Made by a program: the position numbers and the translations under genes
Shown here: piece after piece, positions 1,828 through 55,710 of the stretch
How the letters are laid out: each line of letters begins with the position of its first letter
Numbering within the stretch: the first letter of the stretch is position 1
Notes under the pieces: generated by a model
The model's database searches: none
Seen by the model: only the letters and a program-made list of their open reading frames with translations
What the model was told of the DNA's origin: nothing
Source of the DNA: Gaiellaceae bacterium
GTDB taxonomy: Bacteria > Actinomycetota > Thermoleophilia > Gaiellales > Gaiellaceae
Length of the DNA stretch: 64,000 nt
NCBI GenBank assembly: GCA_035540835.1
Contig: DATLFU010000023.1
Span: 2,228-66,227 of the forward strand
Direction of reading: 5' to 3'

Positions 1828-1867
1828 CGTCGCCGCGGAAGCCCACGAGGAAGAGGAGGCGTAGGTA

Positions 1868-8503: not shown

Positions 8504-8509
8504 GCGCAG

Positions 8510-9739: not shown

Positions 9740-10974
9740 TAGATCTGCCAGGCGCCGCGGCGGAGCACCGGCACGCGCTCGCTTCCGCGGGTGATCCCCG
9801 TGACGTCGACCTCGTCGCCGCCGATCATGAAGTCGACGTGGATCGGGCTGCGGTTGACGCGGTCGCGGTCCTCCTCGCCGACCGTGTCGAGGTACGCGCT
9901 CCCGAGCGCGAGGTGGCTCGCCGCGTTCTCGTCGTAGAGCGTGTTGTAGAACACCGTTCCGAGCGGGCCGATGCGGCCGTTTCCGTCGACGAGCGCGACC
10001 TCGCCGAGCCGGTCCGCGTTCTCGTGCGTCTCGAGCATGCTCCGCATCGCCTCGGCACCGGAGTCCGCCTCGACCGAGACGGCGCGCCCGGCCTCGAAGC
10101 GGACCGTGAGCCCGTCGACGAGCGTGCCGCCCTTCAGCTGGAGCGGCTTCGTCGCCCGCACGACGCCGTCCGCGCGCTGCGGGTCCGGCGCGGTGAACGT
10201 CTCCTCGGTCGGGAGATTGGCCGCGAAGACGATGCCGTCGACGGTCGCGGAGACGCCGCTCTCCCAGCGGGAGGTCGGCATCAGCCCGAGCGTGAAGTCG
10301 GTGCCGGGGCCCTCGAAGTGGAGCGCGTCGAAGCGATGCTCGTTCAACGCGCCCTCGGCGCGCGCGAGGGCGTCGAACCGCTCCTGCCACGCCGCGACGG
10401 GATCGGCCTCGTCGAGCCGGCACGCGTGCAGCACCTCGTCCCACAGCTTCCGCAGCGCCTCGTCCGGCTCGAGCTGCGGATGCACCTGCTGCGCCCACGC
10501 GGCCGTCGGGCAGGCGACGCCGACCCAGTTCGTCGTGTTGTCGTCGATCAGCCGCATGTAGTCCGGCAGGAACGGGAACGGCTCGCGCGCGACCGCGCCC
10601 GGGTCGAGGTCCTCGTAGAGCCCGGGCGGGTTCGACGGCGAGAGCGAGATCCGCGCGCACCGCTGCTCGCCGAGCTGCCGTACGCGCTCCCGGTGCCACG
10701 ACGGGACGAAGTCGAGGGTGGACGCGTCCGCGAGCTCGATCCGGCTGCGGCGCACGTACGGGTCGAACCAGTTGACGTCGACGAAGCGCGCGCCGCGGCG
10801 GTACGCCGCCGCGACGATCTCGTGGACGAGCGCGCGCTGCTCGAGCGTCGCCCGCACCTCCGCGACCTGCCCCGGCTGGACGTTCGCGCCCAGCCCGACG
10901 ATCAGCTCGGCGTACCGCCGGAGCGTCTCGCGCTCGACCTGGGCGTCAGGCGACGTCTGCGTGGATGCGTCCAC
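9739..10974 (-). CDS. M29-family aminopeptidase (AmpS/PepS, aminopeptidase T-like)
   Basis: 411 aa. N-terminal LRRYAELIVGLGANVQPGQ, central NLPTEETFTAP and C-terminal SHLALGSAY...IHVDFMIG blocks typical of thermophilic aminopeptidase family M29. Confidence 0.8.
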   Translation of the reverse strand: MDASTQTSPDAQVERETLRRYAELIVGLGANVQPGQVAEVRATLEQRALVHEIVAAAYRRGARFVDVNWFDPYVRRSRIELADASTLDFVPSWHRERVRQLGEQRCARISLSPSNPPGLYEDLDPGAVAREPFPFLPDYMRLIDDNTTNWVGVACPTAAWAQQVHPQLEPDEALRKLWDEVLHACRLDEADPVAAWQERFDALARAEGALNEHRFDALHFEGPGTDFTLGLMPTSRWESGVSATVDGIVFAANLPTEETFTAPDPQRADGVVRATKPLQLKGGTLVDGLTVRFEAGRAVSVEADSGAEAMRSMLETHENADRLGEVALVDGNGRIGPLGTVFYNTLYDENAASHLALGSAYLDTVGEEDRDRVNRSPIHVDFMIGGDEVDVTGITRGSERVPVLRRGAWQI

Positions 10975-15711: not shown

Positions 15712-15795
15712 GCGGATGTGGCGGAATTGGTAGACGCGCACGGTTCAGGTCCGTGTGGGGGCAACCCCGTGGAGGTTCAAGTCCTCTCATCCGCA
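15712..15795 (+). tRNA. tRNA-Leu (anticodon CAG)
   Basis: Acceptor GCGGATG/CATCCGC with discriminator A. Anticodon arm CACGG-TTCAGGT-CCGTG. Long variable arm TGGGGGCAACCCCGT. T-loop GGTTCAAGTCC. No encoded CCA. Confidence 0.9.
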
Positions 15796-41762: not shown

Positions 41763-41835
41763 GCGGGCGTAGCTCAGTTGGTAGAGCATCAGCTTCCCAA
41801 GCTGAGGGTCGTGGGTTCGAGCCCCATCGCCCGCT
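41763..41835 (+). tRNA. tRNA-Gly (anticodon CCC)
   Basis: Acceptor GCGGGCG/CGCCCGC with discriminator T. D-arm GCTCAGTTGGTAGAGC. Anticodon arm TCAGC-TTCCCAA-GCTGA. T-loop GGTTCGAGCCC. Confidence 0.9.
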
Positions 41836-43848: not shown

Positions 43849-44715
43849 CTACGGCGCGAGCTCGAGCGGGATCTCGACGAGGTTCTGCCGCGACCCGTCG
43901 GCGGCCGATTCCTCGAAGACCCGAAGCGTCCCCATCCCGGCCTCGGCGCCCTCGAACTGGAACGTGGTGTCGAACGTGCCGCGCTCCCCGGATCCCGACG
44001 TCGCGGTGGCGAAGGTGTCGAGGAGCGTCCGCCCGGCAGCGTCGACGAGCTCGACGCGGAAGTTCGCCTCGAACGTGTTCGCCGTCCCCTGGATCCGGAG
44101 CGGGCTGGCGACGCGGTCGCCCGGCGCCGGCGACTCGACGAGGATCGGCGGCGTCACGTCCTCGAAGTCGGCGCGGCCGAGGTCCGTGGCGAGGATCCCC
44201 TCGCCGCCGATCGCGTCGACCGCCTCGCCGTCGAGGCGGATCGAGACGCGCTCGACCGTCGGGAACTGCGTCAGCGTGTAGACGACCTGCGCGACGCGCG
44301 CCGTCATCGACAGCGACCCGCCGCCCGAGGCGAACTCGTCGGAGAGGTCGACCACGGCGTGGCCGCCGCCGTCGATCGAGAGGCCGAGCAGCTCCGTCCC
44401 CTGCGGGATCTCCGTCGCGAGCCCGAGCTCCCGCTCCTCGTCCGTCGGCCCCTGCAGGAGCGCCTCGAGCGACGCGCGGCCGACGGCCGGCCCCGCGTCG
44501 ACCGAACGGGCCGCGACGCCCAGGTGCTCGCCTCGCATCAGGTACACGCGGACGATCCGCGGGTCCTGCTCCGCGGCGGTCTCCGGCGGCTCCGTCTCGG
44601 CGGCCGTCGTCTCCGGCGTCGCGGTTCCAGCGGGCGGAGCCGCGTCGTCACCGGCCCCGCCGCACCCAGGGCAGAGGAGCGCGAGGATCGCGAGAACGGG
44701 AAGCGCGCGACGCAT
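43849..44715 (-). CDS. GerMN + Gmad2 (immunoglobulin-like) domain lipoprotein
   Basis: MRRALPVLAILALLCPGCGG lipobox at internal ATG 44715. SLEALLQGPTDEE...GLATEIP (GerMN) and VESPAPGDRVASPLRIQGTANTFEANF (Gmad2-type) blocks. Confidence 0.7.
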   Translation of the reverse strand: MRRALPVLAILALLCPGCGGAGDDAAPPAGTATPETTAAETEPPETAAEQDPRIVRVYLMRGEHLGVAARSVDAGPAVGRASLEALLQGPTDEERELGLATEIPQGTELLGLSIDGGGHAVVDLSDEFASGGGSLSMTARVAQVVYTLTQFPTVERVSIRLDGEAVDAIGGEGILATDLGRADFEDVTPPILVESPAPGDRVASPLRIQGTANTFEANFRVELVDAAGRTLLDTFATATSGSGERGTFDTTFQFEGAEAGMGTLRVFEESAADGSRQNLVEIPLELAP

Positions 44716-44761
44716 CACCGCGGATTCTGCCGACACGGCTGCGGCGGCGCGCGCGGGCGCG

Positions 44762-46102
44762 TCAGGCGCCGGTCGGGCGCCGCGCGACGGCAGCGGCCGC
44801 GCCCGTCTCGCCGACGACCGGCACCGGCGGGGGCTCCGGGGCGGGCGCGTGGCCGCCCACCGGCGTCACCCACGCCGACCGCGGCAGGTGCCGCTCGAGC
44901 CGCAGCGCCCACGCGGCGCCCGCGAGGCACAGCGCTGCAGCGAGCGCCCAGAGCGCGAGCGGCTCGGAGTGCAGGACGAAGCCCCCCACCGCCGGCCCGA
45001 CGATGAACCCCACCTGCCACGAGATGCTCGAGAGCGCCATGTAGCGGCCGAGGAGGCGCGGGTCCGAGAGGTCGACGACCATCGGCCCCTGGACGGCGCC
45101 GTGCAGGCACTCGCCGAGCGCGAACGCGACCATCGCCGCCGCGAGCACGACGGTGGCGGCGATCCCGGCGAGCGTCGCGCCGACGACGAGGACGACGAGC
45201 CACACCGCCGCCCACAGCACGCCCATCGCCGCGAGCACGCGCATCCGCCGCCGCCCCTCGAGCGCGCGCGCGATCGGCACCTGCGTGAGCACGATCGCCA
45301 GCGTGTTGACGAGGAAGATGAGCCCGATCCCGGTCTCGCTCACGCCGGCTTCGTTCTTCGAGAACACCGGGAAGAACTCCGACAGCGGCACGATTCCGAC
45401 CGCGATGAAGAGCACGTTCAGCGACAGGAACGCGACGAACGGCCGGTTCCGGAGCACGTCCGCGTAGCGGCCGCCGGACCGTTCGCCCCGCGCCTGGCCG
45501 GGCGCGCGCCCTGCGGGGAGGCGCAGGAGGATCGCCGCGAAGACGAGGAAGCTCGCGCCGTCGAGCAGGAAGAGCACGGTGAACGTGCCGGCCGCCTCCG
45601 CGCTCGCGATCAGGCCGCCGACGAGACCGCCGAGCCCGAAGCCGAGGTTCATCGTCACGCGCTGCTGCGCGAACGCCTGGTGCCGCCGGTGCGGCGGCGT
45701 CAGCCGCGTCAGGAGCGACGACTGGCTCGGCCAGAACGCGCCGCTGCCGAGGCCGGCGAGGGCGTTGAGCGCGAACGCGTGCCACGCCTCGGTGATGAGC
45801 GGGAACGCGCTGAAGGCGCCGGCCATCACGAGCAGCGCGCCGGTCAGGGTCGCGCGCGGGCCGACACGGTCGACGAGCGCGCCGCCGAGCGCTCCCGACA
45901 GGAGCCCCGCGACGGCGTTCGTCGCCGCGATCAGCCCCGCCACCGCCAGCGAGATCCCGCGGACGTTGTGCAGGTAGATGATCAGGAACGGGAGCACGAT
46001 CCCGTTCCCGAAGAAGTTCGCGAGACCGCCCGCCTGGAGGATCCACACCTGCCGCGGCAGATCGGGATTCAGGCTGCGGACGTAGGCGCTCAGGTGCCGC
46101 AC
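44762..46102 (-). CDS. MFS transporter
   Basis: 446 aa, 12-14 TM segments. Loop motif GALVDRVGPR between TM2 and TM3. Confidence 0.85.
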   Translation of the reverse strand: MRHLSAYVRSLNPDLPRQVWILQAGGLANFFGNGIVLPFLIIYLHNVRGISLAVAGLIAATNAVAGLLSGALGGALVDRVGPRATLTGALLVMAGAFSAFPLITEAWHAFALNALAGLGSGAFWPSQSSLLTRLTPPHRRHQAFAQQRVTMNLGFGLGGLVGGLIASAEAAGTFTVLFLLDGASFLVFAAILLRLPAGRAPGQARGERSGGRYADVLRNRPFVAFLSLNVLFIAVGIVPLSEFFPVFSKNEAGVSETGIGLIFLVNTLAIVLTQVPIARALEGRRRMRVLAAMGVLWAAVWLVVLVVGATLAGIAATVVLAAAMVAFALGECLHGAVQGPMVVDLSDPRLLGRYMALSSISWQVGFIVGPAVGGFVLHSEPLALWALAAALCLAGAAWALRLERHLPRSAWVTPVGGHAPAPEPPPVPVVGETGAAAAVARRPTGA

Positions 46103-46241
46103 CGCGGCAGCCTAGCCAGCGGTCTTGTGCTACACGCTGAGCGAGCTGCGCGATCTCGACGCGGCGCTCGCGCTCGTATTCGGCCTGTGACGACCCCTCG
46201 CCGACCGGCGGCCGGCGCGAGCCGCTGGCCTCGGCGGTCGA

Positions 46242-46268
46242 GATGCGCCTGGCAGGAATCGAACCTGC
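46242..46268. repeat. att direct repeat, distal copy (orphan tRNA-Arg 3' fragment)
   Basis: GATGCGCCTGGCAGGAATCGAACCTGC is identical to 54556-54582. Confidence 0.85.
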
Positions 46269-46296
46269 CTGCAAATAGGCATCTTTTCCAGCTCGA

Positions 46297-46318
46297 GGAC
46301 AGCACCGGGGACAGCACC
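46297..46318 (+). repeat. tandem 10-mers GGACAGCACC x2 (12-nt register), candidate integrase arm-type sites
   Basis: GGACAGCACCggGGACAGCACC sits 28 nt inside the island from the att copy. The same doublet occurs at 54458-54479. Confidence 0.5.
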
Positions 46319-46362
46319 GTGCGCGCGCGGGCGGCCGCGTCCGAGCGGTTTCGCCGCGCCGA

Positions 46363-46605
46363 CTACAGCTCAGAGGCGGTGATCTCGAGCTCGACCAAGT
46401 CGGGCTGGAGAGCTACCTCGGGAACGAGAAGCCCCTCCTTCGCCGCGGCCTCGAGATAGCCGAGGATGGCGTCGCGCGTCTGATCGAGGGCGTCGTCACG
46501 GGTGTCGCCGTAGGTCGCGAGCGACTCGAGGCTCGGGACGAGCGTCAGCCAGGCGCCCGCAGCTGCATCCCACTCGAGCAGTACTCGAAAGCGCCGGGTC
46601 GTCAT
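46363..46605 (-). CDS. HicB-like (UPF0150) antitoxin-fold protein
   Basis: 80 aa. FRVLLEWDAAAGAWLTLVPSLESLATYGDTRDDALDQTRDAILGYLEAAAKEG matches the HicB N-terminal fold pattern. Confidence 0.7.
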   Translation of the reverse strand: MTTRRFRVLLEWDAAAGAWLTLVPSLESLATYGDTRDDALDQTRDAILGYLEAAAKEGLLVPEVALQPDLVELEITASEL

Positions 46606-46617
46606 CGCTTCGCTGCG

Positions 46618-46875
46618 TTACCGGGAGCTGGCGTGGGCCAGGTTTGCGCGCGCGTCGGCGTAGAGCGGCTCGGGAGCCATGTCGAGACCGTCAGGCCAGG
46701 CGACCGTTCCGGCCTCCGGATCGACGGTGACCCGCGCGAAGTACTCGTGGTCCCGCAGCGGCTCGAAGACGCCACGCCAGACACGTCCGCTGAAGTCGAC
46801 GTCGCCGACCGTTCCGTCCGCGAAGGTCACGCGCAGCCGGTACTCGCCGATGACCTCGACGCCCTTGACGTCCAC
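46618..46875 (-). CDS. DUF2442-like protein
   Basis: YRLRVTFADGTVGDVDF...FEPLRDHEYFARVTVDPEAGTVAWPDGLDMAPEPLY matches the DUF2442 pattern. Confidence 0.7.
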   Translation of the reverse strand: MDVKGVEVIGEYRLRVTFADGTVGDVDFSGRVWRGVFEPLRDHEYFARVTVDPEAGTVAWPDGLDMAPEPLYADARANLAHASSR

Positions 46876-46884
46876 GAGAGCCCG

Positions 46885-47109
46885 TCAGCTCGCGACGCCG
46901 ACCGGCGGCGACGGGAGCATCCGGAGCAGGTCGGGCGGCAAGGTCTCGCTCGCTCGCCAGAACTCGAGCCCCACGAGGTGCCGATCGCGGGAATCGAGCT
47001 CGCGCAAGCCGAAATCGGTTTCCTCGGCGACGACCGTCGTCGGCTGGTAGTCCTCGAACCGCAGCCAGGCGATGTCTGCGTTCTCGTCGTAGTGGCCGTC
47101 GATCTTCAT
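46885..47109 (-). CDS. DUF2283-like protein
   Basis: YDENADIAWLRFED...LVGLEFWRASETLP matches the DUF2283 pattern. Confidence 0.65.
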   Translation of the reverse strand: MKIDGHYDENADIAWLRFEDYQPTTVVAEETDFGLRELDSRDRHLVGLEFWRASETLPPDLLRMLPSPPVGVAS

Positions 47110-47119
47110 TGCACAGATG

Positions 47120-47359
47120 CTAGCTCCGTCGCCAGAGGGTGACGATGAGCGCCGTCAGCTCGTCCCGTGCGGGATGGTTGTAAGCGATTGCGAGACGGCC
47201 CGACACGACGAGCCAGTCGGCGCCCCGCGTATTGCGTGAACGCCGCTCGTGCAGCGTGAGCACCGCTTCCTCGATGTCTGCACGAGCGATAGACAGCAGC
47301 TGCGCCTTGGCGAGCGCATGATCGGTCCACTCGACGATCCGAGGTCCTTCTTCGGCCAC
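47120..47359 (-). CDS. DUF4258-like protein (putative toxin partner of DUF2283)
   Basis: IVEWTDHALAKAQLLSIARADIEEAV... matches the DUF4258 pattern. Sits immediately downstream of the integrase. Confidence 0.6.
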   Translation of the reverse strand: MAEEGPRIVEWTDHALAKAQLLSIARADIEEAVLTLHERRSRNTRGADWLVVSGRLAIAYNHPARDELTALIVTLWRRS

Positions 47360-47418
47360 ACCCGGATCCTCCGCCGTGGAGCGGACAACCGCGCCCTATC
47401 CGAAGGGACGAAAGGCGG

Positions 47419-48471
47419 TCAGCCGCTCGTCCCGGCAAGCAGGACGACGTAGTCGAGCTCGGTCTCGTCGGTGAGGACGTGCGTGTAGGTATTCGCGGTT
47501 ACCGCGAGGTTGCGCTGGCCGACGAGCTCGCCGATACGCGCCCAGGGGACGCCGCGCAGGTGCTCGAGCGAGATCCGCCGGTGGCGGAGGTCGTGCGGCG
47601 AGAACGCCGGTACGCCGGCGGCGGTGCAGGCGCGCGCGACGGCGGTGCGGAAGCGGTCGCCGCCGAAGCCCTGGAAGACGCGGCGCTCGGGCGTTCGGTC
47701 TTCGCGGGGCACGAGCTCCAGCACTGCGTCGAAGATCGGCGGCGGCACGTGCACCCAGCGCCCGCGTCCGGTCTTGGACACCGCCTGCGAGACGCGCCAG
47801 CGTCCGCGTCCCTCGTCGACGTCGCCCCAGGCGAGCTGCTCGAGCTCGCCGAGCCGCATCCCGGTCGCGTCGAGGACGAGGAGAGGGAGCCTGTACCGCC
47901 GCGGGAGCAGCGCGTAGACGGCGAGCACGTGCTCGCCCGCCGGCGGCGCGATCTCCGGCCGCTGCTCGCGCGGGAGCCGGATGCGCACACGGTCGCGGGC
48001 AGGGTTCGGCGCGATGCCGGCGTGGTCGAGGACCATCGCCACCGCGTTGACGACCTTGCGGATCGACTCGCGCTTCGCGCCTTCGGCGTCGAGCCGTGCC
48101 ACGAGCTCGGCGACGTCCTGCGCCGACATTGCGTCGACCCGCCGCCTGCCGAGCGCGGGCAGCGCCTTGCGGATCGCCGTCCGGTGCTGCAACCGCGTCG
48201 CCTCGGCGATGTCGACGCGCGACTCCTGCCAACGCCGCGCGGCCTCCGCGAACGGCGGCGCGAGCGCCGGCTCGCCGAGCAGCTTCAGGTCCGGCACGCG
48301 GAGGGCCGCGAGCTCGCCGCCGATCCAGTCCCGCCGGCTCTTCGCCTCCCGCATCGTCCTGAAGGAGCCGCCGTAGTGGATGCGGCTCTCGCGACCGCCG
48401 AGCCGGTACTCGACGCGGAACCGCCTGCCGCCGTCCTTCGTCGGCCTGGCTCTGATCCAGACGCTAGCCAC
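47419..48471 (-). CDS. int: tyrosine-type site-specific recombinase / integrase
   Basis: 350 aa. N-terminal arm/SAM-like domain and a catalytic domain with TGMRLGEL (Arg), HDLRHRRIS (HxxR) and NTYTHV (Tyr). Confidence 0.9.
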   Translation of the reverse strand: MASVWIRARPTKDGGRRFRVEYRLGGRESRIHYGGSFRTMREAKSRRDWIGGELAALRVPDLKLLGEPALAPPFAEAARRWQESRVDIAEATRLQHRTAIRKALPALGRRRVDAMSAQDVAELVARLDAEGAKRESIRKVVNAVAMVLDHAGIAPNPARDRVRIRLPREQRPEIAPPAGEHVLAVYALLPRRYRLPLLVLDATGMRLGELEQLAWGDVDEGRGRWRVSQAVSKTGRGRWVHVPPPIFDAVLELVPREDRTPERRVFQGFGGDRFRTAVARACTAAGVPAFSPHDLRHRRISLEHLRGVPWARIGELVGQRNLAVTANTYTHVLTDETELDYVVLLAGTSG

Positions 48472-48925
48472 CTCTCACCGCCACTTTCGCGGTCGCGGTC
48501 GCGGGCGGACGCATGGGTCGCACGCGATCGTCGTCGAAGGTGCTGTGGGCGAGAAGGTCGCGGTACTCCTCGGCGCGGATCATCGGCCGCGAGTATCCAG
48601 GCAGTGAGACCACCGGCAGGGCCCGGAAGACGGCGTCGACGGCGCGCCGCTCGAGCCCGAGCTGGCGGAGGTGCGTTCGCGTCAGGAGCGCGCCGGGCGT
48701 CTCGAGAAGCTCCTTCGCCGTCGGCTGGTGCGGCGACGAGCGTGCTTCGGCGGTCGGTCCCCGGCCGCGCGGCTTCACATCTTCGCGTCGTTCCAGTTCC
48801 TGCTCCCATTCGTCGATCGTCAGCTGGCCGGGCGATGAGGTGGTTGCTGGACGCTGGCCTGGGATAGCAGCTCCCCGTCGTGGCAGGATCGAGCGTGGAA
48901 GCATATCAGCCACAGATGACGTCAA
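48464..48925 (-). CDS. putative excisionase-like HTH protein (start uncertain)
   Basis: Overlaps the integrase start by 8 nt. C-terminal LLTRTHLRQLGLERRAVDAVFRALPVVSLPGYSRPMIRAEEYRDLL resembles Xis/AlpA-type HTH. The N-terminal ~70 aa are low-complexity. Confidence 0.45.
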   Translation of the reverse strand: MTSSVADMLPRSILPRRGAAIPGQRPATTSSPGQLTIDEWEQELERREDVKPRGRGPTAEARSSPHQPTAKELLETPGALLTRTHLRQLGLERRAVDAVFRALPVVSLPGYSRPMIRAEEYRDLLAHSTFDDDRVRPMRPPATATAKVAVRGG

Positions 48926-48952
48926 CCAATCTGGGCCGTAGGATCCTGGACC

Positions 48953-49252
48953 GTGAGGAGCGCGGATCTGATCCGAGAGGCGAGGCTACGGGCCGGCCTG
49001 AGTCAGTACGAGCTCGCGGAACGCAGTGGTCGCGATCGGTCCGTCATCGCCCGCTGGGAGCAGGGCGCCGTCGCCCCGAGCGTCGAGACGCTGATCGAGC
49101 TCGTCCGCGCCTGCGGCTTCGATCTCCCGCTCGAGCTCGTGCCGTACGACCCGTCGCGCGGCGAGAAGCTCCGGAAGAACGCGCTCCTCTCGCCGGAGCG
49201 ACGCGTGCTGCGCTTCCTGAAGGCGCGCTCGAAGGCTTCCGGAGCGCCGTGA
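48953..49252 (+). CDS. XRE-family helix-turn-helix protein
   Basis: IREARLRAGLSQYELAERSGRDRSVIARWEQG is the canonical Cro/C1-type HTH. Confidence 0.8.
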   Translation: MRSADLIREARLRAGLSQYELAERSGRDRSVIARWEQGAVAPSVETLIELVRACGFDLPLELVPYDPSRGEKLRKNALLSPERRVLRFLKARSKASGAP

Positions 49253-49758
49253 GCGCCCTTCCACCGCACTTCGATCCGTACGCCCTCCTGGCCGCGCTCG
49301 AGCGTCAGCGGGTCAGCTACGTCCTCATAGGAGCCTTTGCGCGCGTCGTCCAGGGTACGGAGGAGCTCACGCACGGGCTCGACGTCGTCCCGTCGACGAG
49401 AGACCAGAACATCCGCCGGCTCGCGCTCGCGCTCGAGGCCCTCGACGCGCGTCACCGCGGCGGCCGGAGCGTTGCGCTCGAGCGCGACCTCGCCCGCGGG
49501 CCGGTCCTGGAGCTCGAGACCAGCGCGGGCGAGGTGAAGGTCGTCGCCGAGCCGGCCGGCACCCGCGGCTACGACGACCTGCGCCGCCACGCCACCCGCG
49601 AGCCGATCGGGAAGGGCCTGCGCCCCTCCGTGGCCTCGATCGGCGACCTCGCCCGCATGGCAGCCGCGCTCGGCCGCGAGCAAGACCGCGAGCCGCTCCA
49701 GCAGCTCCGCACCCTCGCCGAGCTCGCGCGCGGCCTCCATCGAGGCCTCGAGCGCTGA
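49249..49758 (+). CDS. minimal nucleotidyltransferase-fold protein (TA-type partner of the XRE gene)
   Basis: GTG at 49249 overlaps the XRE stop (GTGA). VSYVLIGAFARVVQGTEELTHGLDVV resembles the G-x-A...T-x-D-x-D pattern of MNT/AbiEii-type nucleotidyltransferases. Confidence 0.45.
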   Translation: MSALPPHFDPYALLAALERQRVSYVLIGAFARVVQGTEELTHGLDVVPSTRDQNIRRLALALEALDARHRGGRSVALERDLARGPVLELETSAGEVKVVAEPAGTRGYDDLRRHATREPIGKGLRPSVASIGDLARMAAALGREQDREPLQQLRTLAELARGLHRGLER

Positions 49759-49913
49759 CGAGTCTTGCGCGGAGACCCGCCTGCGAGGAGCAGCTACGAG
49801 GCCGGATAGCCGGAGGGGCACATATGCACCCCTCGGTGCAGAAGCGCCTCGCCGACGATTCGGGTCACCGTTGCTGGTGCTATCCTTACTTCAACCTGTA
49901 AGTAAGGAGAGCT

Positions 49914-50159
49914 ATGGACATCGCCGCCCGCGTCACTTCGAAGGGGCAGATCACGATTCCGAAGCCGGTGCGCGAGGCGCTCAAGCTCACAGACGGCGAT
50001 CACGTGGTCTTCCGCGTCGTCGAGGGTGAGCGAGCGATTCTGGCGCGGACGCCGGACCTGCTCGATCTCGCCGGAGCGGTTCCGGTCCCGGCCGGCGTAC
50101 GAGGACTTCCGTGGGAAGAGATCCGCCGGCGGGCGTGGTCGGGACAGCTCCGCGGTTGA
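49914..50159 (+). CDS. vapB: AbrB/MazE/SpoVT-family antitoxin (VapB-like)
   Basis: RVTSKGQITIPKPVREALKLTDGDHVVF is the SpoVT-AbrB swapped-hairpin motif. Confidence 0.8.
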   Translation: MDIAARVTSKGQITIPKPVREALKLTDGDHVVFRVVEGERAILARTPDLLDLAGAVPVPAGVRGLPWEEIRRRAWSGQLRG

Positions 50160-50554
50160 CCGCGTTCATCGACTCGAACGTCCTCATCCGACATCTGACC
50201 GGCGATCCGCCCGATCAGGCGAGGGCTGCGACCGGGTTCCTGCGAAGCGGCGAGAGCTTCATCCTCGTCGATCTGGTCGTGGCGGAGGTCGTCTACGTGC
50301 TCGAGTCCGTCTACGAAGTCGAGCGAGAGCGGGTTGCGGAGCTCGTTCGCGCGATCCTGGCCTTCGCGTCGGTGGCCGTACCGGACGAGCCGTTGCTCCT
50401 CCGCGCGCTCGAGATCTACGAGCAGTATCGGATCCACTTCGCCGAGTCGTACCTTGCCGCCTGCGCAGAGTTCTCAGGAGTTGGAGTCGTCGCCTCGTTC
50501 GACCGTGACGTCGACCGCCTGACATCGATTCGCCGGCTCGAGCCGACCGCCTGA
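50156..50554 (+). CDS. vapC: PIN-domain ribonuclease toxin (VapC-like)
   Basis: TTG at 50156 overlaps the vapB stop (TTGA). FIDSNVLI (Asp1), AEVVYVLE (Glu), ESYLAACA and SFDRD acidic residues in PIN order. An alternative GTG lies at 50111. Confidence 0.75.
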   Translation: MTAFIDSNVLIRHLTGDPPDQARAATGFLRSGESFILVDLVVAEVVYVLESVYEVERERVAELVRAILAFASVAVPDEPLLLRALEIYEQYRIHFAESYLAACAEFSGVGVVASFDRDVDRLTSIRRLEPTA

Positions 50555-50685
50555 CGGACCTTGACCAGGCGTGTCGGATCCGCCCAAACGCGTCAAACGC
50601 GACCGAACGCGCATACGGCGTGCCCCCACTGGCGCCCCCATCGCCTCGAAAAACCGATTAGCAGGATTGTTTCGAATCTCACGAC

Positions 50686-51090
50686 TGGTCGGGATCAGCT
50701 ACCTCGGCGCCGCCTGCATCATCTTGGCGAGGTCGGCGACGTCCGCCGTATCGCCAGCAAGGCCCGCTTCGCGCGCTTGAACGGCACCGCCCCGATCCCC
50801 GCCTCCTCCGGCCAGACGCAGAGGTCACCGGCTGGAACAAGGGCGGCACCGTCGGCTCAACCACACGCTGGACATGATGGCGCTCACCCAGGCCCGCCAC
50901 GACCCGCGCGCCCGCGCCTACCTCGAGCGGCGGCGCGCGGAAGGCCGCACCCACCGCGAGGCCCTCCGCGCCCTCAAAACGGGACCTCTCCGACGCCGTC
51001 GACCAGCAGCTCCGCCGCGACGCGGGACTCACGGCACCCGCCTTGACATGGGAGCTCATCACGATGCGAGGCCAGGGCGGCTCGTGGTGA
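50686..51090 (+). pseudogene. IS110-family transposase, 3' remnant with multiple frameshifts
   Basis: Three reading frames must be spliced to read GISYLGAACIILA / EVGDVRRIASKARFARLNGTAPIPASSGQTQR / HRLEQGRHRRLNHTLDMMALTQARHDPRARAYLERRRAEGRTHREALRALK / RDLSDAVDQQLRRD. The N-terminal DEDD domain is absent. Confidence 0.7.
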
Positions 51091-51386
51091 CCACGAGCCG
51101 CGCTTGGCTCGTCGGTTCCTGTGCGAGGGGCGCGACGCCTGCTCGAGGCTCACGAATGCGTCCCCCACATGAGCTCTGCGGAGTGCTTCATCTTCCGAAG
51201 GGAGCGAGGAGTTGACAGGCGTCGAAGCAGACGTCATGCTCTGCGTGACGCAGGGGGAGCCGTGGTTCGTGCCTACACTTCCTTTGCTGCGGCATCTTCA
51301 TCGTCATGGCGTGCTGGGCTGCTTCCCATGGCGCGCGCGTGAGAGCCATCGCCGTGCGCGGTAGGGCGATCGATCCAGGGGACGCT

Positions 51387-51962
51387 ATGACGATGGAGGC
51401 GGCGGCGCTTGGCTCGCGATTCCTGCTGGCATTTGTATTGATCCTCGCCAGCATTCCGAAGCTCGCCGCGCAGCAGGAGTTCGCTCGCGCTGTTGAGAAC
51501 TATGGCCTCGTCCCGCGGTTTCTGGTTCGGCCCTTTTCTCGTACACTGCCCGCGTTCGAACTCCTGGCGGGATCGGCGCTCCTCGCTGGCGTCGCCATCG
51601 CGGCGGTGTCCGTGGCAGTCACCGGCATGCTTCTGATCTTCGCCACCGCGATCACGTGGAACCTTCTGCATGGTCGGAAGATCGAGTGCGGTTGCGCTGG
51701 ATCTGCTCTGCCTCGCGTGATTTCGTGGCACCTGGTCGCACGTGATCTGTTCCTCGCTGCGGTCGCGGTCTTTGTGGCTCTCGCCGCTTTCGCGGGAATC
51801 GCGGGTTCGTTCTTGTCGCCACCGGAGGGAGTCGCAGCCGGCGATGCGGTCGCCGTACTGCTCATTGCGGCGCTCCTTGTATTCAGCGACGCCTTGATCG
51901 CGGATGGTTTCCGCGCTGCATCCGCCTCACACGCGTTTTCCAACCGTACCGGATCGACATGA
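51387..51962 (+). CDS. MauE/DoxX-family redox-associated membrane protein
   Basis: ATG at 51387. 4-5 TM segments. LGSRFLLAFVLILASIPKLAAQQEFARAVENYGLVP and HGRKIECGCAGS (CGC motif) as in MauE-type proteins. Confidence 0.7.
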   Translation: MTMEAAALGSRFLLAFVLILASIPKLAAQQEFARAVENYGLVPRFLVRPFSRTLPAFELLAGSALLAGVAIAAVSVAVTGMLLIFATAITWNLLHGRKIECGCAGSALPRVISWHLVARDLFLAAVAVFVALAAFAGIAGSFLSPPEGVAAGDAVAVLLIAALLVFSDALIADGFRAASASHAFSNRTGST

Positions 51963-52549
51963 GCGGTCCCTGGATGATCGCGTTCAGCGTCCTTACCGGA
52001 GTGGTCGTGATTCTCGTCCTGATCGTCTTCGGCATTCTGCGCCGAGTCTCAGTGGTGCTTGAGCAGGCCGAGGCCGCTCTCCAAGCGAACGGGCCGCCGC
52101 GCCCGAGCGGACTCCCCCCGGGTACGCGCCTCCCCGCTTTCGAAGGCGTCACATCCGGCGATTCGCATTTCGCCAGCTCAAGTCTTCGCGGTACGCCGGC
52201 GGTCCTTGTTCTGCTTGGCCGGAACTGTCCTAGCTGCCGAGCACTCGAAGCTGAGTTGGCGGCGGTGAAGGTTTCGGAACTCGGGGTTCGCGTCGTCGCC
52301 ATCGTCAATGGTGCCGAGCACGCGGAGCGTCTGAGACGAACATCCGAACTGGAGGTCGTTCAACAGCTTGACCACAGCGTTGCGAAGGCCCTTCAGAGCA
52401 CTATGACGCCACACGCGTTCGTGATCGACGCCGAGGGCGTGATCGAGGAAACGGGGATCCCAAGTAGCTTCGAGTCTTTGCGAGCTTTGACTATGAGTGT
52501 CCGGAGACGCGACCAACAGACGGAGACAAGGGAAGTTGCGCGCGCTTGA
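51959..52549 (+). CDS. membrane-anchored thioredoxin-fold thiol:disulfide oxidoreductase (TlpA/ResA/MauD-like)
   Basis: ATGA overlap with the MauE-like gene. N-terminal TM, then LPAFEG...PAVLVLLGRNCPSCRAL (CxxC) and TPHAFVIDAEGVI. Confidence 0.7.
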   Translation: MSGPWMIAFSVLTGVVVILVLIVFGILRRVSVVLEQAEAALQANGPPRPSGLPPGTRLPAFEGVTSGDSHFASSSLRGTPAVLVLLGRNCPSCRALEAELAAVKVSELGVRVVAIVNGAEHAERLRRTSELEVVQQLDHSVAKALQSTMTPHAFVIDAEGVIEETGIPSSFESLRALTMSVRRRDQQTETREVARA

Positions 52550-52738
52550 CCAGAGTCGCTTCTATCGGCACGCTACCGTCGTCGAAGCGGCAAGCCTTGG
52601 AAATGCCTGACGCGATTAGCCACATCCGGAAGCGGCAACGGCGATTCATATATTGACTAGGAGTCATGAGAGGAGGTGGTGAGGCAGAGATTCTCCACTC
52701 CTGTAACGAACGTAAGAAGTCGAAGGGAGAGAATCGCG

Positions 52739-52993
52739 GTGGTCGAGCAAGTCACGACTAATCGGAAGAGCTTTCTGCGGCAGATCGGAGTCACTATAGG
52801 GGCCGCCTTTGGAGCGCTCGCACTCCCCGCGGTGGCCCGGGCCGCACAAAACCAGTGCTGCCCGACCAATCACAGTGTGTGCCCCGAGTGTCCTCCGAAC
52901 TCGGTGCCGTACTGGTGCGACTGCTCGCCGCACCTGCCGTCTTACTGTCAGTGTCGACAGAGCGATACTGGGTGCGACCCCGCTCCTTGCTAA
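52739..52993 (+). CDS. small exported cysteine-rich peptide (10 Cys in the last 45 residues), Tat-like RK signal
   Basis: GTG at 52739 with GGGAGAG SD 7 nt upstream (the track start 52676 abuts its SD). TNRKSFLRQIGVTIGAAFGALALPAVARA / AQNQCCPTNHSVCPECPPNSVPYWCDCSPHLPSYCQCRQSDTGCDPAPC. Confidence 0.6.
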   Translation: MVEQVTTNRKSFLRQIGVTIGAAFGALALPAVARAAQNQCCPTNHSVCPECPPNSVPYWCDCSPHLPSYCQCRQSDTGCDPAPC

Positions 52994-53033
52994 CCGCGGA
53001 TCGCGGGACCTAGCTTGGGACCTGCCGCAGGTC
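52994..53033. terminator. two short GC hairpins between convergent genes
   Basis: CCGCG-gat-CGCGG immediately after the TAA, then GACCTGC-c-GCAGGTC at 53019-53033. No U-tract. Confidence 0.3.
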
Positions 53034-53104
53034 GCAGAGCCCAGCCGTTCCTTCGCGGCAACGTGTTGGGCTCTGTGGCCTCGCCGCCGTCGTCCGTCTA
53101 GGGG

Positions 53105-53869
53105 TCAGCGCCAGCAGTGGCGCGCGGCGTAGAGCTGGACGCTCGTCCTCGTTGCGGTCGCGAAGGCCAATGGGCGTCCGTTCTGGGTACGAACTGCAAT
53201 GGCTCCTTGGGTGATCCTTCCTCCGCGCGCTGCCATCAGTCGCGGCGAGACCGCCACCCAGCGCGACGGCCGCTCGAAAGTTGCGCGAATCCGAACTAGC
53301 ACCTGCCGAGGAGCCTCGCACTTCTGCTTCTCCTGGAACATTGCGCGACCCCCCGCGAGGCCGGTCATGGCGAGCGGCACCTGTGCGTTCACGACGCGGC
53401 AATCCTGGCGGCTGTAACGTGCCTGCCCCGTCCACGGCGAGGTATCCGGGTATCGGTCAGTCTGCAACGAGATCCACGTTCCGGTCTCGGCGCCGCCGCT
53501 CGTCATGCTGACGCTGCTTGGCACCGGCCCCAGCGGCTCGCGCCGCGTAGGTACGGGCGGAGTCGCCACCATCTCGATCATCCGCAGACCTCCCTGTACT
53601 TGCGTGGAACAGAGGAGCGTCCGGTCGACTACGCGGGCACTAGGAGTCGCGGCTTGATCCTGGAGGGCACGCTCTGCGCCGAGGGCGGCAAGTGCGAGCA
53701 CAAGGACCGTCGCTAGCGCGATGCCGCCGATCAGCGGCACGCGCCGGCGGCGGGCTGCGTGTTCGGTTTGGGCGAGCAGGTTCATGATTCCGCGCTCGGC
53801 CGCGGCAGGCGCCACGTCGGGCGTTGCCGCGCGGGCCTCGCGCAGGAGCGTCTCGAGATTAGGCTGCAT
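53105..53869 (-). CDS. putative anti-sigma factor / single-pass membrane protein with 4-Cys ectodomain
   Basis: ATG at 53869 overlaps the sigma gene end by 11 nt. Short cytoplasmic N-terminus, TM VPLIGGIALATVLVLALAALG and a ~180-aa outside domain. No zinc-binding anti-sigma motif seen. Called by position only. Confidence 0.4.
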   Translation of the reverse strand: MQPNLETLLREARAATPDVAPAAAERGIMNLLAQTEHAARRRRVPLIGGIALATVLVLALAALGAERALQDQAATPSARVVDRTLLCSTQVQGGLRMIEMVATPPVPTRREPLGPVPSSVSMTSGGAETGTWISLQTDRYPDTSPWTGQARYSRQDCRVVNAQVPLAMTGLAGGRAMFQEKQKCEAPRQVLVRIRATFERPSRWVAVSPRLMAARGGRITQGAIAVRTQNGRPLAFATATRTSVQLYAARHCWR

Positions 53870-54398
53870 TCTCTTCCTCCTTGATCGCCTCGCGGAGTTC
53901 GGCCCGCGCGCGGCTGAGACGAGCGAGCACCGTGCCGACCGGGACGCCGAGCACATCGGCGATGTCCTTCACGGCGTAGTCGAGCCAGTAGTGGAGGACA
54001 ACGACGATCCGCTTCTCGGCAGGCAGAGCTGCGACCGCCTCGGCGACCGCGACCTGCGCGTCGCTCGCCTCCTCGTTCCACCGCGGCGCCGCCTCGTCTG
54101 GCGGCTCGGCGACGCGAACGAGTCTGCGGTCGCGCCGCAGCTCGTCGAGCGCGCAGTTGACCGCGATCCGGGTGATCCAGGGGCGGAGCGGTCGCGTCTC
54201 GTCAAAGGTGTCCAGCGAGCGGATGACCCGGTGGATCGCCTCCTGGGTCACGTCGTCGGTCGCCGTACGATCGAGCAGCACGCGGTAGGCGGCCTGCCAG
54301 GCGACGTTCCAGTACTTGTCGGCCAGGCGCGCAAGCGCCTCGCGGTCGCCGCGGCGGACGAGCCGGACCAGGATCGCGTCGTCGCTTGGGCGCGCCAT
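53859..54398 (-). CDS. ECF-type RNA polymerase sigma factor
   Basis: Region 2 (DVTQEAIHRVIRSLDTFDETRPLRPWITRIAVNCALDELRR) and region 4 (YAVKDIADVLGVPVGTVLARLSRARAELR). Confidence 0.85.
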   Translation of the reverse strand: MARPSDDAILVRLVRRGDREALARLADKYWNVAWQAAYRVLLDRTATDDVTQEAIHRVIRSLDTFDETRPLRPWITRIAVNCALDELRRDRRLVRVAEPPDEAAPRWNEEASDAQVAVAEAVAALPAEKRIVVVLHYWLDYAVKDIADVLGVPVGTVLARLSRARAELREAIKEEENAA

Positions 54399-54457
54399 CT
54401 GCTCTTTCTACTGTGGCGAGCGGCTGCTTATTGCAACTCGCGCCGGCGGAAGTCCGA

Positions 54458-54479
54458 GGACAGCACCGAGGACAGCACC
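54458..54479 (+). repeat. tandem 10-mers GGACAGCACC x2, candidate integrase arm-type sites (tRNA-proximal arm)
   Basis: GGACAGCACCgaGGACAGCACC lies 76 nt inside the island from the att copy, in the same orientation as 46297-46318. Confidence 0.5.
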
Positions 54480-54555
54480 ATTTGCGCTTTTGCGGCACGG
54501 GCGTCACCCGTGACGCACGTAACCATGCGGGTTTGCGCCTTTGGCCTACCCTCTT

Positions 54556-54582
54556 GATGCGCCTGGCAGGAATCGAACCTGC
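54556..54582. repeat. att direct repeat, tRNA-proximal copy
   Basis: Identical 27-mer. Covers the T-arm and 3' acceptor strand of tRNA-Arg plus 2 nt downstream. Confidence 0.85.
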
Positions 54583-54630
54583 GACCTTGCGCTCCGGAGG
54601 CGCACGCTCTATCCCCTGAGCTACAGGCGC
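54558..54630 (-). tRNA. tRNA-Arg (anticodon CCG)
   Basis: The reverse complement reads GCGCCTG-TA-GCTCAGGGGATAGAGC-G-TGCGC-CTCCGGA-GCGCA-AGGTC-GCAGGTTCGATTCCTGC-CAGGCGC-A. No encoded CCA. Confidence 0.9.
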
Positions 54631-54690: not shown

Positions 54691-55710
54691 GTGGAGCTGC
54701 GCGCGCGCACCGCGACCCTGCGTCTCGCAGAGACGTTCGTGATCGCGCGCGAGGCGTCCGACGAGGCGGAGGTGGTGCACGTCGAGCTGCGCCACGACGG
54801 CGTCTCGGGGTTCGGCGAAGGCGCGCCCGTCGCGCGCTACGACGAGTCCGCGGCCTCGGCGCTCGCCTTCTGCGAGGACGCGCGCGACGTCCTCGGCGAC
54901 GACCCGTTCGCGCTCGAGGAGATCGGCGCCCGCCTCGCGGAACTGCCGGGCCAGCAGGCCGCGAAGAGCGCGCTCGACGCCGCCCTCCACGACCTCTGCG
55001 GGAAGCTCGTCGGGCTGCCGGTGCACCGCCTCCTCGGGCTGCCGCGCGGCGGGCCGCCCACCTCCTGGACGATCTGGCTCGGCGACCCCGACGACATGGC
55101 GCGCCGGACCGAGCGCGTCGCGGGCCGCTTCCGCCGCCTCAAGCTGAAGCTCGGCGGCCGCGACGGTCTCGACGTCGAGCGCGTCCGCGCCGTGCGCTCC
55201 GTGGCGGGCGACGCCCTGCCGCTGATGGTCGACGTGAACGAGGCGTGGTCGCTCGACGAGGCGCTCGCCGCGCTCTTCGAGCTCGCCGGCCTCGGCGTCG
55301 AGTACTGCGAGCAGCCGCTCGCGGCCGGCGACCCCGGCGGGGCCGACCTGCGGGCGCGCTCGCCGCTCCCGATCTACCTCGACGAGGACTGCCACACGCT
55401 CGCGGACGTCGCCGCCTGCGCCGAGCGCGGCCACGGGATCAACATCAAGCTCGCCAAGTCGGGCGGGATCCGCGAGGCGGTGCGGATGGCGCACGCCGCG
55501 CGCGCGCTCGGCCTCGGCGTGATGCTCGGCTGCATGCTCGAGTCGGGCCTCGGCATCGCCGCCGGTGCGCACGTCGCGCCGCTCTGCGACCACGTCGACC
55601 TCGACGGGAACCTGCTGCTGGCGGAGGACCCCTGGCCGGGAGTCGTCTTCGCCGACGGCGTGCAGCTCCCCGCCGACGCGCCCGGGCTCGGCGTTCGAAC
55701 GACCGTCTAG
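54691..55710 (+). CDS. enolase-superfamily dipeptide-epimerase-like enzyme (L-Ala-D/L-Glu epimerase / DgcA-like)
   Basis: 339 aa. KLKLGG, MVDVNEAW, YCEQPL, IYLDED and NIKLAKSGG blocks of MR/MLE-type epimerases. Confidence 0.75.
   Translation: MELRARTATLRLAETFVIAREASDEAEVVHVELRHDGVSGFGEGAPVARYDESAASALAFCEDARDVLGDDPFALEEIGARLAELPGQQAAKSALDAALHDLCGKLVGLPVHRLLGLPRGGPPTSWTIWLGDPDDMARRTERVAGRFRRLKLKLGGRDGLDVERVRAVRSVAGDALPLMVDVNEAWSLDEALAALFELAGLGVEYCEQPLAAGDPGGADLRARSPLPIYLDEDCHTLADVAACAERGHGINIKLAKSGGIREAVRMAHAARALGLGVMLGCMLESGLGIAAGAHVAPLCDHVDLDGNLLLAEDPWPGVVFADGVQLPADAPGLGVRTTV

Follow-up and report, generated by a model that had tools for sequence, protein, structure and literature searches.

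We analyzed a 64-kb stretch of DNA from an uncultured soil actinobacterium of the Gaiellaceae (NCBI GenBank assembly GCA_035540835.1, contig DATLFU010000023.1, positions 2,228 to 66,227 of the forward strand; hereafter the window, to which all coordinates refer unless a locus is named), and found that it carries an 8.3-kb element whose own tyrosine integrase very probably inserted it into the host gene for tRNA-Arg(CCG), at the 3' end. Such an element, best described as a minimal integrative element, is a tRNA-integrated integrase island that is ordinary in kind, the integration of islands into tRNA 3' ends being a textbook principle. It is new for a poorly studied lineage: on the Gaiellales, Actinomycetota that abound in soil, hardly any genetics has been done, and we know of no characterized mobile elements from them. 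An integrative island in this tRNA gene had been proposed in a sequence-only reading of the window, and the proposal was upheld by the regenerated tRNA, the displaced 3' fragment, the intact integrase with its Xis-like partner, and the foreign composition, to which arm repeats and sibling elements have now been added.

Genes were called by using third-codon-position GC (GC3) frame statistics and six-frame reading together with Pfam, NCBIfam, and PHROGs. The limits of the island were set by the following features.

46242-46268, + strand: distal attachment (att) core, an exact copy of the 27-mer and the displaced 3' end of tRNA-Arg (T-arm, acceptor 3' strand, and 2 nt); left limit
54556-54582, + strand: tRNA-side att core, an exact copy of the 27-mer and the 3' end of the regenerated tRNA; right limit
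54558-54630, - strand: intact tRNA-Arg(CCG), 73 nt (ARAGORN; Rfam, 69.8 bits); integration target

The 27-mer GATGCGCCTGGCAGGAATCGAACCTGC was found in exactly two copies in the window, and the island between these two core copies is 8.3 kb in length. A search allowing up to 3 mismatches still returned the same two copies only, and no match was obtained in 100 dinucleotide-preserving shuffles; the perfect 27-bp direct repeat noted earlier was thus borne out, and the dispersed repeat that had been named as its possible refutation was not seen within the window. No other core-like copy, inside the island or elsewhere in the window, appeared at up to 7 mismatches, and at up to 8 mismatches the sole extra match was the T-arm of an unrelated tRNA-Leu. 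Read as tRNA, the repeat begins at position 49, the first base of the T stem, and extends through the T loop and the 3' acceptor strand to the discriminator A73 and 2 nt beyond, and we take this identity block from the T-arm to the 3' end to be the T-loop sublocation class of Williams 2002. ARAGORN, the Rfam scan, in which this tRNA was the sole match, and direct reading all agreed with the earlier assignment of the second copy to the T-arm and 3' acceptor strand, plus 2 nt, of a minus-strand tRNA-Arg(CCG). At the first copy, the likeness to the tRNA ends directly after the repeat and gives way to unrelated sequence, in agreement with its description as an orphan fragment. An intact tRNA at one end, a displaced 3' fragment at the other, and a tyrosine integrase within, which are among the Islander-type criteria, were therefore all found, and the regenerated target with its displaced fragment is the standard signature of tDNA islands (PMC4383910).

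It is extremely improbable that the 27-mer pair arose by chance, is part of a dispersed repeat, or stems from the partial duplication of a tRNA without site-specific recombination. Duplicates of tRNA-derived sequence can arise, but nothing further speaks for this explanation, and the shuffling result, the copy number, the integrase bracketed by the two copies, and the identical architecture in independent genomes described below all speak against it.

The left flank of the island carries a major facilitator superfamily (MFS) transporter gene (44762-46102, - strand), and the right flank carries a gene for an L-Ala-D/L-Glu-epimerase-type enolase (54691-55710, + strand) together with those for a HIT protein and a DUF1611 protein. 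In the proposed integration, the copy borne by the element would complete the tRNA, which has been kept identical to that of relatives, and the original tRNA 3' end of the host would be displaced by 8.3 kb to a position beside the MFS gene. The window also contains tRNA-Gly(CCC) and tRNA-Leu(CAG) genes, at 41763-41835 and 15712-15795, for which a displaced 3' fragment was undetected using the island core as query, no search having been made with their own 3' ends.

The composition of the island was foreign with respect to both GC and tetranucleotides. Its GC content was 68.0% (70.1% in the backbone and 65.4% in the cargo, which sits on the tRNA side of an IS110 remnant), as against 74.3 ± 0.7% with a minimum of 72.5% in 156 windows of the same size outside the island, and the tetranucleotide distance over 4-kb tiles was 0.25-0.43 inside as against 0.11-0.16 outside, i.e., 2-3 times the background. 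Profiling, which the sequence-only reading had suggested as a check, thus marked the island as an outlier on both measures. The AT-rich stretch that it had placed at 50.6-53.1 kb proved to be real, but the true GC minimum was located slightly further to the right, at about 51.0-53.2 kb.

The recombination module consists of two overlapping genes.

47419-48471, - strand: tyrosine integrase (Int), 350 aa, transcribed toward the distal att (Pfam PF00589 and PF22022; PHROG 1 at E 1e-46)
48464-48778, - strand: Xis-like protein, 104 aa, with an 8-nt overlap between its stop and the int start (assigned from its position and its conservation with int)

The tyrosine integrase noticed earlier was confirmed by Pfam and PHROG and was intact, with conserved catalytic positions. 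Alignment with XerA (4a8e) identified R206, K233, H293, R296, and Y329 as the catalytic residues, with Q319 at the position usually occupied by His or Trp. Among the window protein and its 120 closest homologs, R206, K233, Q319, and Y329 were invariant (121/121), and H293 and R296 were each retained in 120 of the 121 sequences. As read from this alignment, the Gln in place of His/Trp is a family trait and not a sign of decay, since it is invariant across all the sequences. The N-terminal 70 residues display a W-x-R...R-Y/F-R-V...G-S-F pattern as in arm-binding domains. More than 2,600 homologs were retrieved at E ≤ 1e-20, the top 120 of which were all at least 66% identical, and sibling integrases located at the same tRNA in other genomes or metagenomes showed identities of 63-89%; a scan of IMG/VR with the integrase gave one distant match only (52% identical).

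The Xis-like gene lies upstream of int in every sibling, with a core that is 65-80% identical. Its single-sequence structural model (pLDDT 83) contains helix-strand-helix elements and resembles a small domain of the DNA-binding type, and the best fold match was BldC, a small MerR-like DNA-binding protein, at a non-significant E of 0.41 (probability 0.82; TM 0.47 on the query and 0.60 on the target). The best match in a PDB profile search was a mitochondrial ribosomal protein (E 0.94). The Xis-like open reading frame (ORF) noticed earlier at the start of int therefore stood as regards the 8-nt overlap and the conservation with int, but the resemblance in fold did not reach significance. By its position and conservation, the 104-aa protein is probably a recombination directionality factor, and excision would then require Int together with this small protein, with the divergently encoded XRE regulator described below probably controlling xis-int.

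The ends of the island showed an organized att architecture.

46297-46318, + strand: P' arm, a pair of GGACAGCACC 10-mers repeated at a period of 12 bp and lying 28 nt inward of the distal core; putative arm-type sites of the integrase
54458-54479, + strand: P arm, a pair of GGACAGCACC 10-mers oriented like the P' pair and lying 76 nt inward of the tRNA-side core
54516-54538, + strand: CACGTAACCATGCGGGTTTGCGC, a conserved 23-nt P-arm motif 26 nt from the core GGCAGG, identical and with the same spacing in loci L006 and L083; candidate accessory-protein site
46266-46290, + strand: hairpin TGCCT-GCAAAT-AGGCA with a T-rich run directly after the distal core, on the P' side

Four exact copies of the 10-mer GGACAGCACC are present in the 64 kb, always in one orientation and always as tandem pairs inside the ends of the island. 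Such pairs were retained in 8 sibling loci, including L006, L083-L087, and L096, where the P' pair has an equal position, and repeated arm-type sites on both sides of the core in attP, the criterion for an arm-site-dependent integrase, were thus found. From these repeats we infer integrase arm-type sites. The TGCC-N8-GGCA pattern with a T-rich tail recurs in sibling elements L023, L050, L084, and L087. A scan for sigma-70 promoters and terminators gave numbers of sites that were not above chance, except for the hairpin adjacent to the core. The window and L006 share a conserved attP-like sequence, and the attP site is situated 1.15 kb downstream of int, with toxin-antitoxin (TA) genes between them.

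Joining of the two ends would generate a circular attP of ~180 bp in the order of a GGACAGCACC pair, 36 bp, CACGTAACCATGCGGGTTTGCGC, 17 bp, the 27-bp core, 28 bp with the hairpin, and the second GGACAGCACC pair. In the proposed mechanism, the N-terminal domain of Int would bind the GGACAGCACC arm sites, and the core would be bound at the natural T-arm dyad GCAGG-TTCGATT-CCTGC, a sort of site on which tyrosine integrases act. Strand exchange with the tRNA gene would take place inside the 27 bp, the 7-nt loop being the candidate overlap region.

To place the island among its relatives, the epimerase was used for a scan of one genome per species, which yielded 80 loci, all from metagenome-assembled genomes (MAGs) of Gaiellaceae, Gaiellales, and Thermoleophilia (best epimerase, 83% identical). 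The tRNA-Arg(CCG) gene lies upstream of the epimerase, in a tRNA-epimerase-DUF1611 neighborhood, in 75 of the 80 loci, 34 of which have it within 250 bp in the orientation of the window, and the int module was present in L006 only. The tRNA is thus a host gene, and the distribution of the element is patchy. The conservation of the tRNA-epimerase link, together with a tRNA-Arg(CCG) sequence identical in 8 related genomes, likewise assigns both the tRNA and the right flank to the host.

The 3' side of this tRNA was hypervariable. In 8 loci, a second copy of the tRNA 3' end was found 0.7-8.3 kb away, and the junctions fell into two families. In family A, to which the window belongs (L006, L023, L028, and L050), CTGC(A/T)AAT...GGCA and then tandem 10-12-mers come after the core. 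Family B (L007, L019, L058, and L073) is unrelated and phage-like, having a slightly longer identity block and a junction at which ...CCTGCG is followed by GAAAGTTCCCGCCAG; in L073 (e.g., 1526-9935), an unrelated integrase adjoins the tRNA and an HK97-type capsid gene is present, and L058 holds a decayed copy of that integrase. Because a second, unrelated element family uses the same tRNA, tRNA-Arg(CCG) is an integration hotspot in Gaiellaceae. A "second copy" in L039 was rejected as an att site, being an unrelated short match. Some loci showed other traces beside tRNA-Arg. L010 (6762-7880) carries AbrB-PIN genes 76% identical in nucleotides to those of the island and a fragment of an extracytoplasmic function (ECF) sigma gene, with no integrase and no repeat, and may be a decayed relative. 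P-arm-like sequences with arm repeats were seen in L081 (9711-9902) and L035 (391-565); the genes adjoining the former look like a DNA methyltransferase/restriction-type fusion, with no related integrase within 9.8 kb.

The siblings share the genes of the island to various extents. The L006 homologs were 63% (Int), 74% (Xis), 52% (XRE), and 62% (169-aa protein) identical, with GGACAGCACC pairs at both ends and the CACGTAACCATGCGGGTTTGCGC motif as above. The integrase of L006 (1106-2155) is split in two ORFs; as the name of the MAG suggests a long-read assembly, this may be a sequencing frameshift and not decay. L083 (Int, 85%) is an 8.2-kb contig that covers almost exactly one element, with tRNA-Arg and the P-arm repeats on one side and, where the contig ends, the P' repeats on the other, and contains the same backbone, DUF4258-like, DUF2283, and DUF2442 genes, with a 36-41% identical MauE/MauD-like/Cys-peptide cassette in the cargo position. 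L084, L085, and L086 share an identical integrase, 75% identical to that of the window, in a 5-kb element where the stretch from int to the distal core holds a PemK-type TA pair; the same place is taken by a RES/Xre pair in L087 (Int, 73%) and by a DUF4160/DUF2442 pair in L096 (Int, 89%; NCBI GCA_030155625.1). Comparison of these sequences gives a family layout composed of a nucleotidyltransferase (NTase)-fold protein, XRE, and divergent Xis and Int, in which the stretch from int to the distal att is a slot for swappable TA genes and that from the NTase gene to the tRNA a slot for cargo.

The sibling sequences also defined the boundary of the element. L084 and L085 are 99.8% identical over 5,419 bp, comprising the tRNA flank and the whole element, and are unrelated directly past the last base of the displaced tRNA fragment. 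Similarly, L096 matches the window at 81-85% identity across backbone, P' arm, and core, and this similarity ends about 10 nt outside the core, beyond which L096 has an unrelated membrane protein in place of the MFS transporter. Since homology breaks there in both comparisons, the core repeat is the true boundary of the element, and this type of element lies next to different DNA. In L084-L086, the displaced core copy (L084, 8734-8760; L085, 5395-5421) has a T loop of TCTGATT as against TTCGATT, which may be explained either by later decay or by a crossover 3' of the loop.

For the comparison with an empty site, which the sequence-only reading had suggested, the nearest cases came from gene order. 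In L022 and L055, an MFS gene, 70-215 bp, tRNA-Arg, and the epimerase are contiguous, which is the order predicted for the unoccupied locus; with an MFS only 51% identical, they are gene-order analogs only. At the nucleotide level no empty site was found, the intergenic DNA of the nearest relatives (epimerase, at most 83% identical) being too diverged. Over 71 relatives, alignment of the 60 nt outside the distal core with the 60 nt downstream of tRNA-Arg gave a mean score of 9.4, no improvement on the 8.8 of an island-internal control. MFS homologs at 86-88% identity have other upstream genes (in L089 that of a nitrile hydratase, in L090 and L091 an unidentified ORF) and no tRNA on their contigs; the contig of a 100% identical MFS (P0121) ends 41 bp upstream of the gene, again with no tRNA, so that all of these are uninformative. 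Exact-protein look-ups with both flank genes returned only the metagenome contig that is the source of the window, ENA ERZ27256763 k141_19425, and an exact-pattern scan of JGI metagenome contigs for the left flank plus the core (attB/attL of this strain) gave 0 matches. Pieces 100% identical to the window were present in two other public assemblies, L094 (SRR8438990), which corresponds to 45995-50382 and spans the distal junction, and L088, which corresponds to 44176-46143 and ends before the core.

Some of these results weigh against insertion by the element's own integrase, as do several others. No nucleotide-level empty site for this strain or species was found among the relatives, the JGI metagenome contigs, or the MFS homologs, and the sole other dataset that covers the junction (L094) shows the occupied state. 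The excised circle, proposed as a further check, did not emerge either, the attP junction (P-arm motif, core, and P' start) giving 0 exact-pattern matches in the JGI metagenome contigs. The arm-binding domain of Int was not reported by Pfam at E ≤ 0.01, and the binding of the arm sites is what we infer. The Xis-like protein gave no significant sequence or fold match (Pfam at E 10, PDB profile, and fold comparison), and no transfer or replication function is encoded, which leaves horizontal spread unexplained.

Several of these points would also fit a fixed fossil, i.e., an old integration inherited only vertically, in which excision and movement have been lost and the TA genes merely prevent loss. 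This alternative appeared unlikely to us, yet deserves serious weight: transfer and replication genes are lacking, a decayed IS110 lies inside, only the occupied state and no circle junction has been seen, the integrase of L006 is split, albeit in a long-read MAG, and elements of the AICE type (actinomycete integrative and conjugative elements) have been reported to co-evolve mainly with their hosts (PMC2440964). On the other side, no mismatch has arisen in the 27-bp repeats, both arm pairs are intact, the catalytic positions of Int and the xis-int overlap are preserved, the composition has not drifted toward that of the host, the distribution among relatives is patchy, and the 99.8% identical element of L084 and L085 has unrelated distal flanks in two samples. 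The intact repeats, arm sites, and integrase thus argue that the integrase-inserted element may still excise.

None of the island ORFs encodes a replication initiator, FtsK-like transfer protein, relaxase, primase, Nudix, capsid, or terminase as judged by Pfam, NCBIfam, and PHROGs, and there is no spare coding space large enough for them; PHROGs matches were confined to the integrase, HTH (helix-turn-helix) regulators, HicB-like, and DUF2442-type proteins. With no replication, conjugation, or packaging genes, any movement between cells relies on something else. Identity with a prophage or phage satellite was rejected, as virion, packaging, and hijacking genes were absent by PHROGs. Descent from an AICE or another integrative and conjugative element (ICE), a prophage, or a phage satellite through loss of replication, transfer, or structural genes is quite improbable. 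An AICE-like organization (actinobacterial host, tRNA 3'-end target, int-attP, XRE, and Xis; PMC2440964), the use of the same tRNA in L073 by a different, phage-like element that carries an HK97-type capsid gene, and the IMG/VR contig with a 52% identical integrase might speak for such descent. Nevertheless, all the coding space is accounted for with nothing like Rep, FtsK/Tra, Nudix, capsid, terminase, or primase, and all 7 of the siblings examined, about 5-8 kb where both ends were covered, share one minimal backbone instead of varied remnants.

The remaining genes outside the cargo, together with the IS110 remnant, are as follows.

48953-49252, + strand: XRE-family HTH regulator, 99 aa (Pfam HTH_3 at E 3e-14); putative repressor and/or antitoxin
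49249-49758, + strand: nucleotidyltransferase-fold protein, 169 aa, overlapping XRE by 4 nt (AlphaFold2 (AF2) and Foldseek)
49914-50159, + strand: AbrB/MazE-type antitoxin, 81 aa (Pfam PF04014 at E 4.8e-11)
50111-50554, + strand: PIN-domain (VapC-type) toxin (Pfam PF01850 at E 1.1e-14)
46363-46605, - strand: HicB-like antitoxin-type protein, 80 aa (Pfam PF15919 at E 4.9e-5, below the gathering score; PHROG 497)
46618-46875, - strand: DUF2442 protein, 85 aa, antitoxin-type (Pfam at E 5.9e-15)
46885-47109, - strand: DUF2283-like protein, 74 aa (Pfam at E 1e-3, below the cut-off; 90% identical in L083)
47120-47359, - strand: 79-aa protein, possibly and weakly a DUF4258-type toxin partner of DUF2283 (Pfam DUF4258 at a non-significant E of 0.075; 86% identical in L083)
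about 50667-50978, + strand: decayed IS110 transposase, a C-terminal fragment with a frameshift near 50825 (repaired peptide matching Transposase_20 at E 3.5e-12)

The XRE gene is divergent from xis-int across a 175-bp intergenic region and is kept in all siblings (52-88% identical). The 169-aa protein gave no Pfam, NCBIfam, PHROG, or PADLOC match, DUF1814/AbiEii being absent even at E 10 or 0.1. Its AF2 model, of moderate confidence (pLDDT 73.5), was matched by Foldseek to TM1012 (2fcl) and the MenT1 toxin (8an5 and 8an4) at E 2e-5 to 2e-4 with TM 0.52-0.62. The 2625 homologs of this protein are all annotated as hypothetical, and some of them are fused with an XRE HTH into one 269-aa protein (P0278, P0309, and P0345). 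MenT toxins extend tRNA acceptor ends and thereby block charging (PMC10435456, PMC7450476). We prefer a TA-type stabilization role for the pair of XRE and the 169-aa NTase-fold protein, which every sibling retains; a regulatory rather than toxic role of the latter would also be possible, because some homologs are fused to an HTH.

The four TA-like pairs of the sequence-only reading were a fair description, but only AbrB/PIN forms a textbook pair, and the rest consists of the XRE/NTase backbone module, the weak DUF4258/DUF2283 pair, and two antitoxin-type proteins (HicB-like and DUF2442). DUF2442 is elsewhere the partner of DUF4160, and such a pair is held by L096. PADLOC made no defense-system call beyond generic HTH matches. 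Most likely, the swappable TA-type genes in the slot between int and the distal att and AbrB/PIN would stabilize the integrated or excised element. The decayed IS110 transposase noticed earlier was recovered as the frameshifted Transposase_20 remnant. Between this remnant and the MauE gene, a near-perfect palindrome with 22-nt arms and a 1-nt spacer was observed at 51067-51111, which may be an IS (insertion sequence) end or a terminator.

The cargo comprises five genes.

51387-51962, + strand: MauE-family membrane protein (Pfam PF07291 at E 4.5e-24)
51959-52549, + strand: MauD-like membrane-anchored thioredoxin-fold protein (AhpC-TSA/Redoxin; TIGR02661 MauD over the full length at E 1.2e-7, below the cut-off)
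52739-52993, + strand: 84-aa precursor having a Tat (twin-arginine translocation)-type signal and a cleavage site, AxA; the mature part has 49 residues, 10 of them Cys
53105-53869, - strand: single-pass membrane protein overlapping the ECF sigma stop (no family match)
53859-54398, - strand: ECF sigma factor, 179 aa, encoded by the last island gene before the tRNA (Sigma70_r2 and r4_2; TIGR02937 at E 1.5e-26)

The sigma/MauE-like cargo described earlier was confirmed by Pfam and NCBIfam in both its MauE and ECF sigma components. From its position and topology, the single-pass membrane protein is a putative anti-sigma; two relatives, 32-33% identical, were detected in L083 by tblastn. The Tat signal of the precursor is NRKSFLR, an RK variant of RR, and most relatives have SRRxFLR. 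An exhaustive search of 1.84 billion representative proteins yielded relatives of the precursor in 48 clusters only, and the family has 8 invariant Cys in the pattern CC..C..CxC..YCxC..C..C and a conserved SRRxFLR...AxA leader. Clusters of MauE/MauD with a Cys-rich precursor have been flagged by decRiPPter in Streptomyces as candidate families of RiPPs, peptides made on ribosomes and modified after translation (PMC7794033). The cargo, with its MauE/MauD-like pair, Tat-signal Cys-rich peptide, and ECF sigma, is the most unusual part of the island.

It is improbable, if less so than descent from an AICE or phage, that the island is a composite of two events, in which a minimal int-xis-XRE-NTase-TA element was joined by a separate sigma/MauE block, either via IS110 or as a tandem second element with a decayed att. 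The drop in GC from backbone to cargo at the IS110 remnant, the minimal siblings of about 5 kb that lack this cargo, and the difference between L084 and L085 beyond the distal att, which is consistent with hotspot accretion, are in line with such a history. However, the core scan revealed no internal core-like sequence, the P-arm repeats lie outside the cargo, beside the tRNA, so that the cargo is now inside one att-bounded unit, and L083 has its MauE/MauD-like/Cys-peptide cassette in the same position without an IS.

We tentatively suggest, at somewhat less than even confidence, a wider significance of the island. It may be one of a very abundant and so far undescribed family of minimal (about 5-8 kb), tRNA-Arg(CCG)-specific Gaiellales elements, made up of int, xis, XRE, a MenT-like NTase-fold protein, and a swappable TA module, which would spread without replication, conjugation, or packaging genes of their own and serve as vehicles for a rapidly diverging cassette of a Tat-exported 10-12-Cys peptide and MauE/MauD-type maturation proteins, combined here with an ECF sigma switch. 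If this is true, the MauE/MauD cassette could be the source of a secreted peptide of a new class, either rich in disulfides or cross-linked. The cassette ties proteins of the MauE/MauD type to a defined family of Tat-signal Cys-rich peptides, a connection earlier proposed only by Streptomyces genome mining. The element itself is a compact, fully delimited att/int/xis system with a 27-bp core, arm repeats, and many natural variants, and might be developed into an integration vector for high-GC actinobacteria. Its family raises the question of transfer, as these elements without transfer functions are nonetheless patchily and widely distributed. The large family of minimal elements, the clean att architecture, and the Cys-rich peptide cargo lend the island a modest added interest.

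In comparison with known systems, the island resembles the tDNA islands of Islander (PMC4383910) in its tyrosine integrase, the split tRNA restored by island sequence, and the marking of both ends by a tRNA or its fragment. It differs from them in its very small size (8.3 kb; siblings, about 5-8 kb) and in having the integrase at the end far from the intact tRNA. AICEs such as pSAM2, SLP1, and pMEA300, in which attP lies immediately downstream of int and the regulator is of the XRE or GntR type (PMC2440964), share with the island the actinobacterial host, the tRNA 3'-end target, xis-int, attP downstream of int, and XRE, the size of the island being slightly below the AICE range. Of the AICE modules, that for integration/excision was present, and neither replication proteins (RepSA, RepAM, or Prim-pol) nor an FtsK/SpoIIIE-like transfer protein was found. 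Unlike AICEs, the island lacks a replication initiator, FtsK-like Tra, Spd, and Nudix, and has a TA module between int and attP. Identity with an AICE was therefore rejected for want of a replication or transfer module, the island being neither conjugative nor self-replicating by known means.

The att architecture suggests the heterobivalent logic of lambda/L5-type integrases, as seen in the T-arm dyad core, the 10-mers on both arms about 30 and 80 bp off, and the small putative directionality factor upstream of int. In contrast to those systems, the four 10-mers, which are putative sites, all have one orientation and form two tandem pairs, and Gln replaces the usual His/Trp throughout the family. 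The 169-aa protein is, in its modeled fold, nearest to TM1012/MenT1 and, like TA systems of the MenAT/AbiE NTase type (PMC10435456, PMC7450476), is translationally coupled to a small HTH protein; it differs from them in showing no membership at the sequence level (DUF1814, Pfam, and PADLOC), in its partner, an XRE HTH encoded upstream, and in the HTH fusion of some homologs. Finally, the cargo shares with the decRiPPter clusters of Streptomyces (PMC7794033) a MauE homolog, accompanied in the island by a MauD-like thioredoxin-fold protein, beside a small precursor with at least 8 Cys and the absence of a methylamine dehydrogenase operon, and differs from them in the Tat-type signal and AxA site of its precursor, the added ECF sigma and membrane protein, and the mobile-type carrier.

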